From: a phage
Reading direction: 5' to 3' (one strand)
NCBI GenBank assembly: GCA_030980935.1
Contig: GCA_030980935.1_3059.1
DNA: 64,000 bases
The notes beneath the pieces were generated by a model. It did not search any database and was not told where the DNA came from. It saw only the letters and a list, made by a program, of their open reading frames with translations. Numbering within the stretch: position 1 is the stretch's first letter; every line of letters begins with the position of its first letter. A program made the translations under genes and the position numbers. Shown one piece after another: positions 55,667-63,650 of the stretch.

Positions 55667-55987
55667 TTATAGCGTAATCCATTCTCGTACTGTCTGAGTT
55701 ACTACACGTTCACGGGGCTCGACTAGTTCAACAGTCGGAACTGCATAATACCAGTCAGAATGGTAAGAACCTGAGCGAGATTCATTTACAGACACATGAA
55801 CGTTATGTTTTTGACTAAAATAAACACACTGACGATATTGGCATTTACCATCTTGCACCCAGTCTTCTATTTCGATAGGTTTAAGATAATCGGAAAAATC
55901 GAAATCATAGTTTTCCGAAAATGCATCATGGTCTTCAATGATTTCGCTCAGAACTGCATCAACATCTAATTTATTTTCAATAGTCAT
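55667..55987 (-). CDS. Hypothetical protein (106 aa)
   Basis: Track ORF. Confidence 0.5.
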   Translation of the reverse strand: MTIENKLDVDAVLSEIIEDHDAFSENYDFDFSDYLKPIEIEDWVQDGKCQYRQCVYFSQKHNVHVSVNESRSGSYHSDWYYAVPTVELVEPRERVVTQTVREWITL

Positions 55988-56891: not shown

Positions 56892-57281
56892 TTAATCCAA
56901 AATATTATTAGGCATTGGTTGAACACTCGCAAGTTCTTTAAAGAACTCAGTAGAGTCAGGTAATTTAACCATTTCCGGAGCATGCTTACTAAATTTATGT
57001 TTGCAATGACGGCATTTATATTCAAGTTCCGGTTTACGCCAGTTAATCAATTGAACTTGTTCAGTACCGCATTCAGGACAATTAGGAACGTTTTTAGAAG
57101 CCCTTTCGCGACGTTCAACCATAACCATAATAGCATCCCAGGCTGGAGGTTTAAAATCTAAATCATCACAACCATGAATCTTTCCGCGCATTTCCAGATC
57201 GTCTTCTTCACCAGCCATAATAATTTTAATTAGACTGGAATTACTTGAAGCTGCAATATCTTCTAATAGACGCTTTTTCAT
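56892..57281 (-). CDS. Zinc-ribbon protein (129 aa)
   Basis: CPECG...CRHCKH four-cysteine pattern. Confidence 0.5.
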
Positions 57282-58207
57282 TTCAATACCTCAATAGCAT
57301 TACGTAAACCATTTGCTTTTGCATTAAGAGCTTTTAACAATTTAGTGTGTTCGGCAATCTGAGCTTCAACTTCAACTAGTCGAGATTTGAGGTATTCACG
57401 TTCTTCGCTCAAGTTATCAATCTTTTCTACTTTAGGCTCTTTTACAACTGTCTTATATGTATTAGGGTTCTTCAGTTTAATTAAAATGCGTGAACTGTAT
57501 AACATTGAACCATTATCTTCGGTTTCGTCATACATTTCTACTACGTCCATGATTTTTAACATCATGCGGAGTTTATAAGATAACGAACGAATAGTTTTGT
57601 TGTGCTTATTAATTTCTCTAGAGTTCATGGTGCCGAGATTACGTGAGTAATAATAAGGAACCTGGATATTAATTAATACTGATGAACCACCTGGCTTGTG
57701 TGTTACTTCATCAGCAATAACCCAATCCTTAACATGAACTGTATTTGTACGGTCATCGCCCGCGGTAAATAGTTTGCGAGCATGCTTAAAAAGCATATTC
57801 ACTTGGTCATTGAATTGACAAGCAAATTTATCAGCAAATTTAGTTTCAGGAATGGTAGATAACCAATCAGCCAAATGGGTCTTTTTAACATCGTTAACAA
57901 TAGTAAATTCAACCAAATCAGTTATAGATGTCTCAGATTTAATAAAGCTCGGCTTCATAAAGTTTTTAATGTTATCGCGAGCTACAGTAGAAGATAACAT
58001 ACGAGAACGTTTAAACCATTGAAGCAAATTGCCCAACGAATGAGAATAAGCGTTTTGAGTATCTTTACAGATATGATTTTCCTGGCCAACATATTGAAGG
58101 AAATCACGAAGAATATTATTGATTACTGCTCTGTGTCCGATCTGATAATTACGGTGTTTAGTAATAAGACTGTCAAAATAATCAATATAATGTTTACGAG
58201 TTTTCAT
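57278..58207 (-). CDS. Coiled-coil-tailed protein, tandem family member 1 (309 aa)
   Basis: About 260 aa N-domain plus C-terminal heptad-like tail [42 protein letters not shown]. Confidence 0.5.
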   Translation of the reverse strand: MKTRKHYIDYFDSLITKHRNYQIGHRAVINNILRDFLQYVGQENHICKDTQNAYSHSLGNLLQWFKRSRMLSSTVARDNIKNFMKPSFIKSETSITDLVEFTIVNDVKKTHLADWLSTIPETKFADKFACQFNDQVNMLFKHARKLFTAGDDRTNTVHVKDWVIADEVTHKPGGSSVLINIQVPYYYSRNLGTMNSREINKHNKTIRSLSYKLRMMLKIMDVVEMYDETEDNGSMLYSSRILIKLKNPNTYKTVVKEPKVEKIDNLSEEREYLKSRLVEVEAQIAEHTKLLKALNAKANGLRNAIEVLK

Positions 58208-58259
58208 ATTCTTCTCACTTGGTTAATGGTTTATACTCCGAGCCATCCTTGGCTTTAAA

Positions 58260-59291
58260 TTACTTAATTAACTGTAAAGCTTGTTCAAGACGATCAAGAC
58301 GATTAACAGATTCTTCCCAAATCCTTTTAGCCTGCTCATATTCTTTCTGCGCTTTATTAGAAATTTCTAGAACTTCTTTATAAGCTTTTTCTAGTGCAAT
58401 AACTTCTGGACGAATTTCTACCGGTTCAGGTGAATCGTCAAGACATTCCATTAGTTCTTCAAGGGTAGTTTCTTCTTTAGGAGTATTCACAATTTCATCA
58501 CATTTTTGTTGGTAAATTTCTTTATCAGTCGATGAGCACGCACACTTTACTTCACGAAGGCTAATTATAATTTTATATCCTTCCCAACCACACATATTTT
58601 TGAAAGGATATGTATGAATACTTTTTACAGTTTCCATACAGCCCAAAACCGCCTCTAATTGATAAGTTATAGTGCTAGCAATTGAGAAAAATTTATTAAT
58701 ATTCTTTTGGTTAGCGTTTGGTGTAAAAAATCCATAATTCACAAAAATAGCTACTTTATTTTCATCAAGCTCATATTCTTTTACGATAATCATATCAGAA
58801 GCCAAAGGATGAATTTGACGATAATCGCCATAACATAATTTAGAAGCTGATTTTAGAATTTGTCCTTTGAAAAGTCTGAAATTACTAATCCAACGACGAG
58901 TAAAAATATTCTCAGGGTATTCTTTATTATTAAGATGATAAGAATTAACATCACCGAACCAATTATATCCTACTACATCTTTAGTTCGTTTAATTTCTTT
59001 CCCAAATTTACTAAGAATATCTCTGTTGACTAAGTATGAAAGAAGACGAGACCCTTTAAAGGTTTTCTTAATGTCATCTTTATCTGTACGACTAGAAATT
59101 TCACGAACTTCATGAATAAATTTGCCGGAAGAAACAATACTTGCATCAGTATTATTGAGCCATTGATTGATAATAGAAATCACACTATTCTGACTAGACA
59201 TAGGTTTAACTTTATCATCAATAACGCTGTTGAACGATTTAATATATTCGTTGCGAGTCATATTAATCTCCTCAGTAGAAAGTAAGAACAT
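58260..59291 (-). CDS. Coiled-coil-tailed protein, tandem family member 2 (343 aa)
   Basis: C-terminal tail ALEKAYKEVLEISNKAQKEYEQAKRIWEESVNRLDRLEQALQLIK. Confidence 0.5.
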   Translation of the reverse strand: MFLLSTEEINMTRNEYIKSFNSVIDDKVKPMSSQNSVISIINQWLNNTDASIVSSGKFIHEVREISSRTDKDDIKKTFKGSRLLSYLVNRDILSKFGKEIKRTKDVVGYNWFGDVNSYHLNNKEYPENIFTRRWISNFRLFKGQILKSASKLCYGDYRQIHPLASDMIIVKEYELDENKVAIFVNYGFFTPNANQKNINKFFSIASTITYQLEAVLGCMETVKSIHTYPFKNMCGWEGYKIIISLREVKCACSSTDKEIYQQKCDEIVNTPKEETTLEELMECLDDSPEPVEIRPEVIALEKAYKEVLEISNKAQKEYEQAKRIWEESVNRLDRLEQALQLIK

Positions 59292-59322
59292 TATACCACA
59301 TCCTTGTGGCGAAGTAAACTAG
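59288..59322 (-). promoter_or_regulatory. T4 early promoter inside the coiled-coil gene array
   Basis: GTTTAC (59314-59319), TGGTATAAT -10. Confidence 0.5.
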
Positions 59323-60323
59323 TTTAGTGCATTTAGTGCGTTGTTCAATTTAGAACGTTGCTTCGTGAGATTTTTTACTTTTTCTTGAGCTTTTTCTAGC
59401 ATCTTTTCAGCTTCTAACACTTCATTAGTTGCTTTAACGAGTTCATCATCTACTGCCTTGATAGACTTCTCAATCGCATCCGCGTGCCATTTTTCAACAG
59501 GTTTAAGACTCGGATTTTCAACAGGAAGAAAATTCACTTTATTGAATTTCCATGCATCATTATTACCTGAACTATACATCCAAAATTTAGGATCGTTTGA
59601 TGAGTAATTAGTTTGGGGTTCAGGTTTTTTCTCTTGTGTAACTTCGTCCTTTCTCAAAAAATCATATTTAAATGAAACGATCATATCAAGTTCATATGTT
59701 GTCGTATCTAATTTAAATCGTTCGAAATGCTGCGAAATCTTAGACTGAACAACAGAAACAACATCCATATACTTAAATGCTTCTGTCAGCTGTGATTTAA
59801 GACATTCACAAATTGAAAGAGAATTTTTAGTACTAGGTTTAAAGCTAATTCGTGCAGTTCTATTATTTTCTTTTAATGGTCTTACTTCCATCTGAAGAGT
59901 ATAACCATCAAATTTCAGATTCTTTAAGTTAATATCAGAGCCCTTTAATCGACTAGCAGTAGACAAAATTTGCTTTAATTGTTTACGAAATAGAGCAATA
60001 AATCTCCATTCAATACGATAATGATTTGGATTAAAAAATCCTGTTGATAAATCAACCTTACTCTGACCAACGCCTTGAACAAACAGAGGATTTTTATAAT
60101 CAATAGTTTTACAGAAATCGGTGAGCTGCTCACGAGCAGTCATTTGTGTAATATATCCCGCTTTACTAAAATGACGTAACCATTCACTGCTATTCATATA
60201 CTTAAAGTGAATATCACGATTAACTTTATCAGGGTCTAAATTATTTTGGCACAAAAATGTCATAACATTACGGGTATAGCTGGCATTACGAACCATATCT
60301 TCAATTTGAGAACGAGTTTTCAT
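59319..60323 (-). CDS. Coiled-coil-tailed protein, tandem family member 3 (334 aa)
   Basis: Starts MKTR like member 1; C-terminal tail ...EAEKMLEKAQEKVKNLTKQRSKLNNALNALN. Confidence 0.5.
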   Translation of the reverse strand: MKTRSQIEDMVRNASYTRNVMTFLCQNNLDPDKVNRDIHFKYMNSSEWLRHFSKAGYITQMTAREQLTDFCKTIDYKNPLFVQGVGQSKVDLSTGFFNPNHYRIEWRFIALFRKQLKQILSTASRLKGSDINLKNLKFDGYTLQMEVRPLKENNRTARISFKPSTKNSLSICECLKSQLTEAFKYMDVVSVVQSKISQHFERFKLDTTTYELDMIVSFKYDFLRKDEVTQEKKPEPQTNYSSNDPKFWMYSSGNNDAWKFNKVNFLPVENPSLKPVEKWHADAIEKSIKAVDDELVKATNEVLEAEKMLEKAQEKVKNLTKQRSKLNNALNALN

Positions 60324-60331
60324 AGTGTTCC

Positions 60332-61234
60332 TTAAGATTTAAGTAAATCAACAATTTTAATTAATTTTTCACGCTCAGATTTAGCTTTACTACTCAATCC
60401 AGATAGTCTGAAAATTTCATCGTCATACTGTTGAATAGAAATATTCAGCTCTTCAATTTGCTTATTAAAATAATCAATTTGCTCAGAATGTTTTTCATTA
60501 CTGCGAACTGGTACAGGTTTTGTAGGCAATTTAGTTAAACTGGATTCATCCGGGCGATAAATTAAAATACAACTTGAACCAATCGGGCATTTAGCACCAG
60601 ACACATATTCTAATGTTCCGGCTTCTTTTAAAACTTCAAAAGCTAAACAGAGATGATGCCCCATATTAACATAATCTGTAGAGCGAGCTCTGATATAATA
60701 ATCATCGCCGCGAATACTAAATTTAAAGCATTTAAGGTCTTCTGTATTATTGGTCTTAAAAATCATTTGTTTATCTAGACCTTTAGCTAATCGAGCGCCT
60801 AATGCTAATAATCGTCGTTGATTTTCCCACAAATCCGCAATCATTTGATCGAATGACAATTTCGGCATTAGTCTACCATAAAGGTCATATCCTTTATTAT
60901 AATTGCGAAGAATTTCACTTGCATTAATACGAGACAATGCTCCAATTTTATTAAGGGCTTTCATAATGCGATTAGATAAACCCATTCCAGACCCGTTTGT
61001 TCGCTGTAAATGTTTTTCTAATCCAAATCCAATATCAACTTTAAACTTATCTAAAATTTCTGCATGAACATCTCTATCAATAACATTCAAATCCAAAGTT
61101 GGGTTAAATCTATGAAAAAATTTATCTGGCTCTCCACGACGAAGTACAGTCCATTCATTCAATTTTTTATTAACTAAAGATTTAATTACTGCATTGACAC
61201 TATTAATTACTACTGACATATTTTCCTCACTCAA
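60332..61234 (-). CDS. Coiled-coil-tailed protein, tandem family member 4 (300 aa)
   Basis: C-terminal tail ...QIEELNISIQQYDDEIFRLSGLSSKAKSEREKLIKIVDLLKS. Confidence 0.5.
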   Translation of the reverse strand: MSEENMSVVINSVNAVIKSLVNKKLNEWTVLRRGEPDKFFHRFNPTLDLNVIDRDVHAEILDKFKVDIGFGLEKHLQRTNGSGMGLSNRIMKALNKIGALSRINASEILRNYNKGYDLYGRLMPKLSFDQMIADLWENQRRLLALGARLAKGLDKQMIFKTNNTEDLKCFKFSIRGDDYYIRARSTDYVNMGHHLCLAFEVLKEAGTLEYVSGAKCPIGSSCILIYRPDESSLTKLPTKPVPVRSNEKHSEQIDYFNKQIEELNISIQQYDDEIFRLSGLSSKAKSEREKLIKIVDLLKS

Positions 61235-61634: not shown

Positions 61635-61689
61635 AATAATCTCAATTAAAAGGGCTTAGAACCATTATACCATCCTTGGTATAAAGCGG

Positions 61690-62217
61690 TTATGCGAGTA
61701 CCGTCTTTAACCGTTCTTCAAACTTCCGAAGAGTATTCTGGCGTTCAGCTCTTTGCTTTTTATAAGTTTCAATACGCTCTGAAATGAGAGTGTATCGTTC
61801 ATTTACTGATTCTTTCATAAAATCAGGAATTTCACGAGAAGCTTTAATCTCGTCAAATTTATCAATAACAGCTTGCTCTTCAGCAATTAAGTTATCATAC
61901 ATCAAAATATCTTTCTTGATGAACTCAATATCTTCTTGAGTTACACGAGATAATTTAGATGCTTTATCCTTTTTGTACTGTTCATTAGTATCACGAGACC
62001 AGTGTAATGTACGATTTTTATTCGTATTTTTGTAAATTTCTACAATACCAATCTCATCGATAATAACGATCCAATTCCAACGAGATTTGTAAATTTGTCC
62101 TCCGTCAACCGTGATTTCACCTCCGATTGAGATGTCATTAAAGAACTTGCTTTGTGCTTCAGATTTAAATTTACCATCATTGTAGTTTACCAAGTTGAAA
62201 ATATCTTTAGCATTCAT
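61690..62217 (-). CDS. Hypothetical protein (about 175 aa)
   Basis: Track ORF 61690..62277 trimmed: N-terminal 20 codons are the transcribed promoter/leader cassette; real start MNAKDIFNLV... after GGAGGAACAGAAA. Confidence 0.45.
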   Translation of the reverse strand: MNAKDIFNLVNYNDGKFKSEAQSKFFNDISIGGEITVDGGQIYKSRWNWIVIIDEIGIVEIYKNTNKNRTLHWSRDTNEQYKKDKASKLSRVTQEDIEFIKKDILMYDNLIAEEQAVIDKFDEIKASREIPDFMKESVNERYTLISERIETYKKQRAERQNTLRKFEERLKTVLA

Positions 62218-62681: not shown

Positions 62682-63650
62682 TTATTTCAGAAGAGTAACC
62701 TCAGCGATTTCTTCCCAACCGTTTTTGTCGGTCATAATAAAGTCAGCAAGATAAAGAGCAGTACGCAGTGAAACATTGCGTAAACGATTAACATTGACTT
62801 TCATCCATGATAATGCTTTATAAGTTTCTTCATCAGAAAGACCGCGTTTTTGCATCATGTCAGTTGAAAGAATAACATCTTCAACCCTGACCATAATTTC
62901 TTCATTAGTGTGAACACCCAAATCCAAATAAACTGAGCGGGACACTAATGCTTGTAAATGTGGAGCAAGTTTAGTACCACGGTCTAATTCGCGGTCAATA
63001 TCAACGTTTGTGATAAAAACAATCGTTCCTTTAAATTCAAACTCACGCTCAATGCCTTTTTCTTCTAAGTAAGAAGATGCAGTGCTCCAGCAGACTTTAC
63101 GGGTCTCTCCAGTGTCCAGAGCAGCTTTCAGAAGATTAAGAATGTCCATATCAGAGAAAACATCCACATCATCAATCAAAAGGACAGAATTCTCTTCACG
63201 ATTATTCCAAAGCTGTTCATAAAGACCAATACCAGAGATTTTACCATTAATGCTTTTATACTCAATGTATCCAATATCATTTGCTTTATTTAAAGCTTTA
63301 TCTAAAGAATACGTTTTACCAATACCTGCTGCTCCCGAGATAATTAATGAACGAATGTTTCCGTTAATAATACCATTCGTCATCATTCCCATAACATTAA
63401 ATCTTTTATTAATGCGGGTTTTCATATCTTCATACGATTCTTTAACTTCTTCAACTTTTACACCATCATATGAAATGTCTGATTTGTAAACCCAAACACC
63501 GCGACGCTTACCGTCAATTTCAACAAAAACTTTACCATCTCCTTGTGCATCTACCGGAGCATTATCTGGGAACCATTCGCCTAAGAGCTCAAAAGTTCCA
63601 GAGATTTCTTTGCCAAAGTAGATACCCTTATTGATAGTTACAGTTTTCAT
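62682..63650 (-). CDS. P-loop ATPase (AAA-like), 322 aa
   Basis: Walker A GAAGIGKT and Walker B LLIDDVD. Confidence 0.6.
   Translation of the reverse strand: MKTVTINKGIYFGKEISGTFELLGEWFPDNAPVDAQGDGKVFVEIDGKRRGVWVYKSDISYDGVKVEEVKESYEDMKTRINKRFNVMGMMTNGIINGNIRSLIISGAAGIGKTYSLDKALNKANDIGYIEYKSINGKISGIGLYEQLWNNREENSVLLIDDVDVFSDMDILNLLKAALDTGETRKVCWSTASSYLEEKGIEREFEFKGTIVFITNVDIDRELDRGTKLAPHLQALVSRSVYLDLGVHTNEEIMVRVEDVILSTDMMQKRGLSDEETYKALSWMKVNVNRLRNVSLRTALYLADFIMTDKNGWEEIAEVTLLK

Follow-up and report, generated by a model that had tools for sequence, protein, structure and literature searches.

The nrdC.3-nrdC.6 array of a T4-like phage: a diverged paralogue family with heptad-repeat tails and a probable role in counter-defence

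The stretch of DNA analysed here (the window; 64,000 nucleotides from a phage, NCBI GenBank assembly GCA_030980935.1, contig GCA_030980935.1_3059.1) is a segment of a Tequatrovirus genome. It carries, at 57278-61234, four consecutive minus-strand open reading frames (ORFs) that correspond to nrdC.3, nrdC.4, nrdC.5 and nrdC.6, of which annotated copies exist in T4 and PP01, and that are flanked by the glutaredoxin gene nrdC and the ATPase-like gene nrdC.10. Our analysis indicates that the four products very probably belong to one diverged paralogue family of common ancestry and, taken as a whole, favours with fair probability their interpretation as counter-defence paralogues with coiled-coil tails. 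The genes would be old tandem duplicates of a single gene restricted to T4-like phages, expressed early from sigma-70-type promoters, and each protein would consist of an alpha/beta head of about 230-280 residues, a linker predicted with low confidence and an amphipathic heptad helix of 50-55 residues that extends to the C-terminus. As accessory counter-defence proteins they might owe their target specificity to the fast-evolving head, while the conserved tail would form a coiled coil, homo-oligomeric or possibly mixed, and supply the valency or geometry needed to keep an oligomeric host sensor from acting. NrdC.5 would neutralize the SIR2 NADase Dsr1 early, ahead of the late capsid protein that Dsr1-type sensors recognize, and NrdC.3, NrdC.4 and NrdC.6 may act likewise on other defence proteins or on Dsr1 variants.

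The region 57278-61234 is matched by 657 phage records, with 99.6% identity to phage PinkRuby and about 89% to T4. An initial annotation, made from the sequence, had described four consecutive co-oriented ORFs of 309, 343, 334 and 300 amino acids. Their positions and orientation and the first and third lengths stood, but the second and fourth had to be shortened to 333 and 295 residues. The ATG at 59291 that would give the 343-residue version of NrdC.4 falls within the TATAAT hexamer of a promoter, and the start lies at the ATG at 59261 behind a GAGGAG, both invariant in eight phages. Likewise, the TTG at 61234 that would give the 300-residue version of NrdC.6 overlaps the end of nrdC.7, and the start is placed at the ATG at 61219, with a GAGG eight bases upstream. 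The gap between nrdC.6 and nrdC.5 measures 8 nt. The four genes are thus arranged as follows.

57278-58207, minus strand: nrdC.3, 309 amino acids, family member 1 (phrog_1435, E = 2.7e-116)
58260-59261, minus strand: nrdC.4, 333 amino acids with corrected start, family member 2 (phrog_1435, E = 3.1e-165)
59319-60323, minus strand: nrdC.5, 334 amino acids, family member 3, orthologous to the anti-Dsr1 gene of T4 (Pfam DUF7235, 387.8 bits)
60332-61219, minus strand: nrdC.6, 295 amino acids with corrected start, family member 4 (phrog_2257, E = 3.7e-152)

A role in counter-defence is suggested first of all by published work on nrdC.5. An evolved T4 clone with deletions was unable to plate on ECOR17 unless dsr1 was removed, and plating on MG1655 with dsr1 was regained when T4 nrdC.5 was expressed (Srikant et al., 2022, PMC9391042). 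In the same study nrdC.5 is called an early gene and is absent from a viable evolved T4 clone (PMC9391042). Dsr1 and Avs7 have a common sensor, which detects major capsid proteins (2026 Nature paper, PMC13581612). The NrdC.5 of the window is 90% identical to that of T4 over the full length, differing from it by a short linker deletion, and its gene is flanked by nrdC.6 and nrdC.4 in every Tequatrovirus locus examined. The statement in the initial annotation that no function is apparent overlooks this work, because T4 nrdC.5 restores infection on Dsr1 cells; by the same result its guess at an anti-defence role is borne out for T4 nrdC.5, leaving the other three genes as candidates only. In the literature we found nothing on the mechanism of NrdC.5 or on the relationship of the four genes beyond Srikant et al. 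(2022), and no report of a defence block by NrdC.3, NrdC.4 or NrdC.6.

Moreover, the four genes fit the anti-defence kind in being non-essential, variably present and fast-evolving, as seen from their copy number, a natural deletion fusion, their substitution rates and the viable T4 clone that lacks nrdC.5. The family is very small: among 1.84 billion proteins an HMMER search found only 20 clusters at 50% identity that match it, and a scan of viral contigs for relatives gave 12 loci, all from the same genera. Tequatroviruses carry four copies, Gaprivervirus and Dhakavirus three, RB69 has nrdC.6, a degraded nrdC.5 and nrdC.3, and a Klebsiella Marfavirus a single one. Purifying selection acts on all four genes, but their ratios of non-synonymous to synonymous substitution rates (dN/dS) of 0.10-0.28 (0.28 for nrdC.3, 0.19 for nrdC.4) are 3-20 times those of endoVII, nrdC, nrdC.8, nrdC.9 and nrdC.10 (0.01-0.06). 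In the fusion (P0057, in 167-kb contigs), NrdC.5 residues 146-272 are joined to NrdC.3 residues 134-309 and nrdC.4 is lost.

The paralogues might instead be host-takeover proteins or metabolic modulators, the rescue by NrdC.5 being indirect, through NAD+ or nucleotide metabolism or through a delayed trigger. The published experiment is indeed a genetic rescue only, other phage systems beat Dsr1 by rebuilding NAD+, the neighbouring genes include nrdD, nrdG and nrdC of nucleotide metabolism, and the heads match no known inhibitor fold. We nevertheless regard this explanation as rather unlikely: no enzymatic or nucleotide-binding domain was detected in any of the four proteins, the absence or degradation of the genes in many relatives is a better fit to accessory host-range genes than to core takeover functions, and the neighbours 49.2 and pin act on host proteins. 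The stretch from gene 49 to nrdC.11, which contains 49.2, pin and nrdC.5, looks like a counter-defence neighbourhood, and the product of gene 49.2 has been reported to inhibit the OLD defence in T6 (PMC13096335).

Evidence that the four proteins are related to one another came from profiles and predicted structures. Pairwise alignment, which the initial annotation had proposed as a check, found a significant match only between NrdC.3 and NrdC.4 (BLASTP, 25% identity over 226 amino acids, 40.8 bits), and the other pairs, which BLASTP did not connect, were linked through profiles and structure models. Family alignments were built from three database searches, the diverged phage loci and an exhaustive HMMER search. 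When compared with hhalign, NrdC.3 and NrdC.4 matched with a probability of 97.9% (E = 3.7e-13) over the full length and 98.3% for the heads, and the two together matched NrdC.5 with 91.7% over the full length and 86.5% for the heads. The pooled NrdC.3/4/5 profile matched NrdC.6 with 93.8% (E = 1.7e-7, 232 colinear columns) over the full length and with 82.2% (E = 1e-5, 176 colinear columns, score 44) when only heads were used. Reversed, column-shuffled and 10-column-block-shuffled controls reached at most about 27, compared with observed scores of 44-58 (head-only 44-47), and eight unrelated neighbouring gene families, NrdC.8 among them, scored 9-19.5 with probabilities of at most 0.6%. Furthermore, distant relatives form bridges, as with P0214, whose head scores against all four head hidden Markov models (HMMs). 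The diversified paralogue family postulated in the initial annotation is therefore supported: matches between profiles of the heads alone hold up against every control, and the two available models agree in the succession of their secondary-structure elements and share structural neighbours.

It could be argued that only NrdC.3, NrdC.4 and NrdC.5 are homologous and that NrdC.6 is an unrelated protein with an independently acquired coiled coil, its likeness to the others arising from helical or compositional bias. BLASTP and family-to-family hhalign comparisons with NrdC.6 are at noise level, its tail is a helix-break-helix instead of one helix, it has neither the MKTR nor the MDVV motif, and within the window the F345 HMM scores it at E = 0.055-0.075 only. 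Nonetheless, this separation appears improbable to us, given that the 176-column head match to the pooled profile scores 44, compared with no more than 26 for its permutation controls and 19.5 for unrelated families, that P0214 links the NrdC.6 head with the others, and that the NrdC.5 and NrdC.6 models have the same secondary-structure order and common Foldseek neighbours, the NrdC.5 model leading directly to the NrdC.6 of JS10. NrdC.8, which also has a heptad tail, yields no signal, so a coiled coil alone does not produce the family match.

Short motifs gave a mixed picture. The shared MKTR start and MDVV stretch, noted initially for the first and third proteins, are borne out by the alignment of NrdC.3, NrdC.4 and NrdC.5, in which M1, T3, R4, M186 and V189 never vary and D187 and V188 hardly do; with its corrected start, NrdC.4 also begins with MTR. 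The 'NSV...I' pattern reported for the second and fourth proteins is not conserved, T4 NrdC.6 reading INNVNAVI and VR25 and MX01 being without it, and we take it as chance because the orthologues of NrdC.4 and NrdC.6 do not keep it.

The C-terminal heptad-like helix proposed for all four proteins was recovered, the best-scoring 28-residue heptad window being C-terminal in each. Under a simple scoring scheme of our own, distinct from the published coiled-coil predictors, this score was reached by 0 of 300 shuffled sequences for NrdC.3, NrdC.5 and NrdC.6 and by 5 of 300 for NrdC.4. Over 50-55 residues the heptad pattern is uninterrupted, hydrophobic residues occupying 12/14, 11/14, 15/16 and 12/15 of the a and d positions in the four proteins. 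The tails were located as follows.

57281-57430, minus strand: heptad tail of NrdC.3, about residues 259-309, behind a head of about residues 1-235
58263-58412, minus strand: heptad tail of NrdC.4, about residues 284-333
59322-59492, minus strand: heptad tail of NrdC.5, residues 278-334
60335-60496, minus strand: tail of NrdC.6, residues 242-294, helix-break-helix

The register at the C-terminus is identical in the four tails, the last a and d positions falling among the six terminal residues. The end pattern L-x-x-[AIV]-[ILV]-x-x-[LIF]-[KNE], which was derived from the four proteins themselves, occurs in 4 of the 248 ORFs of the window, these four only, and is kept in most of their distant orthologues. 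In each of the four groups, diverged orthologues have kept the tail better than the head (tail/head 0.74/0.59, 0.68/0.38, 0.42/0.33 and 0.62/0.46), and in nrdC.4, nrdC.5 and nrdC.6 the tail also has the lower dN/dS (0.07 in the tail of nrdC.4 vs. 0.20 in its head). AlphaFold predicts one helix at 278-333 of NrdC.5 and two, at 242-271 and 277-294, in NrdC.6, whose tail, judging from the model, may be an intramolecular hairpin instead of an oligomer-forming helix.

The AlphaFold models of NrdC.5 and NrdC.6 (predicted local distance difference test, pLDDT, 60 and 77.7, respectively) agree in how their elements follow one another: helices at the N-terminus, then two paired helices, a beta-hairpin, one helix and a second beta-hairpin, followed by a linker of low confidence and the helix at the C-terminus. 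When searched with Foldseek against viral models, both retrieve with probability 1.00 the same uncharacterized proteins of about 300 residues from T4-like phages (Cronus, Mineola, CBH8, PM2, fHe-Yen9-01 and Merlin), and these matches reveal very diverged relatives in other Straboviridae. Sequence profiles of the heads gave nothing meaningful against PDB, PADLOC and NCBIfam, and neither a solved structure nor a curated family alike was found. A sub-threshold resemblance of NrdC.3 residues 30-86 (57950-58120, minus strand) to the N-terminal SAM-like domain of tyrosine recombinases of the XerD type (Pfam E = 0.079, NCBIfam E = 0.0013) could be due to chance or to a common helical bundle.

With the NrdC.5 model, about residues 100-220 also gave weak Foldseek matches to tail completion and tail terminator proteins (E = 4e-3 to 3e-2, about 125-150 columns). 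That the four proteins are structural or assembly-related, as these matches might suggest, can be set aside as extremely unlikely, as they are not seen with the NrdC.6 model, which is the more confident one, the genes belong to the early, non-essential nrdC-mobD region and are preceded by early-type promoters, evolved T4 clones survive deletion of nrdC.5 and the copy number varies among phages. The matches would be of interest only if the heads mimicked structural proteins that are seen by immune sensors. They would fit a very doubtful extension of the counter-defence proposal, in which mixed coiled-coil oligomers would form an early, multi-specific 'decoy platform' whose heads imitate late structural proteins and occupy Dsr1- and Avs-type capsid or tail sensors before their triggers appear.

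Several observations weigh against the proposal of a counter-defence family with common tails. Tail-only profile similarity between the paralogues is weak (best 49%, P = 1.8e-4), so that the tails may have come to differ in partner specificity, or their equivalence may be a loose one. The link of NrdC.6 to the others at the sequence level needs the pooled profile, family-to-family comparisons being weak (P = 0.001-0.13). The NrdC.5 model is only moderately confident, at its pLDDT of 60, and the Foldseek template modelling (TM) scores are low (0.3-0.5), which means that long helices may contribute to the structural matches. Gene-wide positive selection was not detected in the four genes. Moreover, a phenotype is available for one member, measured with the T4 allele and not with that of the present phage, and the rescue is compatible with direct inhibition as well as with an indirect effect (PMC9391042); direct binding, oligomerization and any function of NrdC.3, NrdC.4 and NrdC.6 are what we infer.

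The internal early promoter that the initial annotation had placed at 59288-59322 was found at 59319-59290 on the minus strand, with conserved hexamers. Its sequence, GTTTAC and TG-n-TATAAT separated by 17 nt, is what we take to be the T4 early promoter consensus. Tequatrovirus, Gaprivervirus and Dhakavirus share both hexamers, the ribosome-binding site and the start codon of nrdC.4 without change but differ in the spacer, and five such promoter sites were observed in the window where 0.15 would be expected. Two further promoter-like elements accompany it.

59290-59319, minus strand: early-type sigma-70 promoter of nrdC.4 (GTTTAC, 17-nt spacer, TG-n-TATAAT), from motif search and alignment
58230-58259, minus strand: putative degenerate promoter-like cassette of nrdC.3 (TTTAAA, spacer with CCAAGGATGG, TATAAA), from alignment and motif search
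61664-61679, minus strand: CCAAGGATGG followed directly by TATAAT (predicted extended -10, TGgTATAAT), upstream of nrdC.7

In RB69 the position equivalent to the nrdC.3 cassette has the canonical form, GTTTAC...CCAAGGATGG...TATAAT. Judging by its sequence, the element at 61664-61679 probably drives the tightly packed nrdC.7-nrdC.6-nrdC.5 block. Cassettes before nrdC.3, nrdC.4 and nrdC.7 suggest three expression units, nrdC.7-nrdC.6-nrdC.5, nrdC.4 and nrdC.3, and their relatedness suggests that the duplication copied the promoter together with the gene. Either CCAAGGATGG or CCACAAGGATGTGG stands just upstream of the -10 hexamer before nrdC.3, nrdC.4 and nrdC.7 (58243-58252, 59296-59309 and 61670-61679, all on the minus strand). 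This motif can fold as a 5-bp hairpin with an AGGA loop, has two exact copies in the window and might represent either a promoter cassette that was duplicated or a hairpin with a regulatory role.

As to how the array evolved, no sound evidence was found for the interchangeable heads that the initial annotation had envisaged. The gene order 6-5-4-3 is kept across genera and each orthologue group retains its own head and tail, which argues for old duplication and divergence and not for module swapping. Two candidates for exchange were rejected. In P0057, a microhomology of 3 residues connects NrdC.5 (about residue 266) with NrdC.3 (about residue 137), and since the joined positions are not equivalent this is an illegitimate deletion and not a recombination between paralogues. 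P0210, an unrelated head followed by an exact NrdC.5 tail, comes from a single metagenome contig of 803 bp, its head matches no phage, and it is probably an assembly chimera. The syntenic single copy of Klebsiella phage MY02 (Marfavirus; L006:6236-7183 = P0207) has a head that scores best with NrdC.4 (32 bits) and a tail that scores best with NrdC.5 (40 bits), and could, from these scores, be a near-ancestral form or a head/tail recombinant.

Individual copies show further irregularities. The annotated NrdC.5 of RB69 (L003:6824-7726) matches the family in its N-terminal part only; the coiled-coil tail is missing and an unrelated basic sequence forms the end, which points to a frameshift or to a copy in decay. 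One contig carries a split nrdC.4 (L008:7054-8086), PP01 (L001) has shortened nrdC.5 and nrdC.6, and the NrdC.6 of Shigella phage Sf25 (P0059) contains an internal duplication of 120 residues. In the phage studied here, the first 840 or so bases of nrdC.3 are 84-86% identical at the DNA level to Mosigvirus-like genomes, and nrdC.6 is 97% identical to that of T4. At the protein level NrdC.3 is 77% identical to its RB69 counterpart but 60% to that of T4, from which it follows that alleles move between genera within the array.

In the databases the four proteins are spread over separate families, each ORF being a full-length, high-scoring member of its own: phrog_1435 (NrdC.3 and NrdC.4, which PHROGs already places in one family), PF26897 (NrdC.3), phrog_2257/PF26899 (NrdC.6) and DUF7235 (PF23882), which NrdC.5 matches far above the cut-off of 30 bits with residues 1-334 on model positions 1-307. 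Whereas these are three or four families of unknown function, our analysis joins them into one superfamily with a common head-linker-tail plan. Many of the GenBank records matching 57278-61234 label nrdC.3-nrdC.6 as 'thioredoxin'. Thioredoxin or glutaredoxin families were not among the Pfam or NCBIfam matches of any of the four proteins, and since no such domain is detectable, the label seems to have been propagated from the nrdC.x gene names. The union of the superfamily and the conserved-tail architecture appear to be undescribed; the genes themselves are known, one of them with a published function.

An HMM search found no further members of the family in the 64-kb window. NrdC.8 (61690-62217, minus strand) was considered as a fifth member, as it also ends in a heptad-like helix (score reached by 2 of 300 shuffles), and was rejected when tail HMMs, head HMMs and hhalign gave nothing. 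The designation of NrdC.8 as a 'nucleotide reductase' in the DRT1 paper (PMC13275509) apparently rests on the gene name alone. The product of nrdC.10 (62682-63650, minus strand, 322 amino acids), adjoining the array, gave weak sub-threshold matches to AAA_14, AAA_22, nSTAND3 and AAA_16 at about residues 96-203 and is a probable ATPase. On the other side, a 106-residue ORF (55667-55987, minus strand) sits between 49.1 and nrdC, at the position of gene 49.2 in annotated relatives.

A better knowledge of this array is desirable, since T4 is the best-studied virulent phage and yet most genes of its nrdC-mobD region have no known function. If our interpretation is true, NrdC.3, NrdC.4 and NrdC.6 become specific counter-defence candidates, and the common plan may help to learn how Dsr1-type sirtuin sensors get blocked. 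In addition, three or four database families are merged and the 'thioredoxin' label is corrected. The nrdC.3-nrdC.6 array is a real and coherent feature that offers candidates for testing, but it does not amount to a novel type of system.

Among known systems, a parallel in function is DSAD1 of an SPbeta-type phage, an inhibitor of the sirtuin defence DSR2 (PMC10973363, PMC10981675, PMC11087589). DSAD1, like NrdC.5, counters a SIR2 NADase whose sensor sees a late structural protein; its target DSR2, however, senses the tail tube, whereas Dsr1, which T4 NrdC.5 overcomes, senses a capsid protein, and the phage groups differ. The two are set beside each other by function, as an analogy only. A second parallel is offered by gp49.2, which acts against OLD, and by the anti-toxin island dmd-tifA-adfA, which resemble nrdC.3-nrdC.6 as small to mid-sized, early, non-essential genes in hypervariable clusters that are lost or amplified under selection, and each of which defeats one host system. 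Those genes, however, are unrelated singletons, whereas nrdC.3-nrdC.6 are neighbouring paralogues with a conserved coiled-coil tail.

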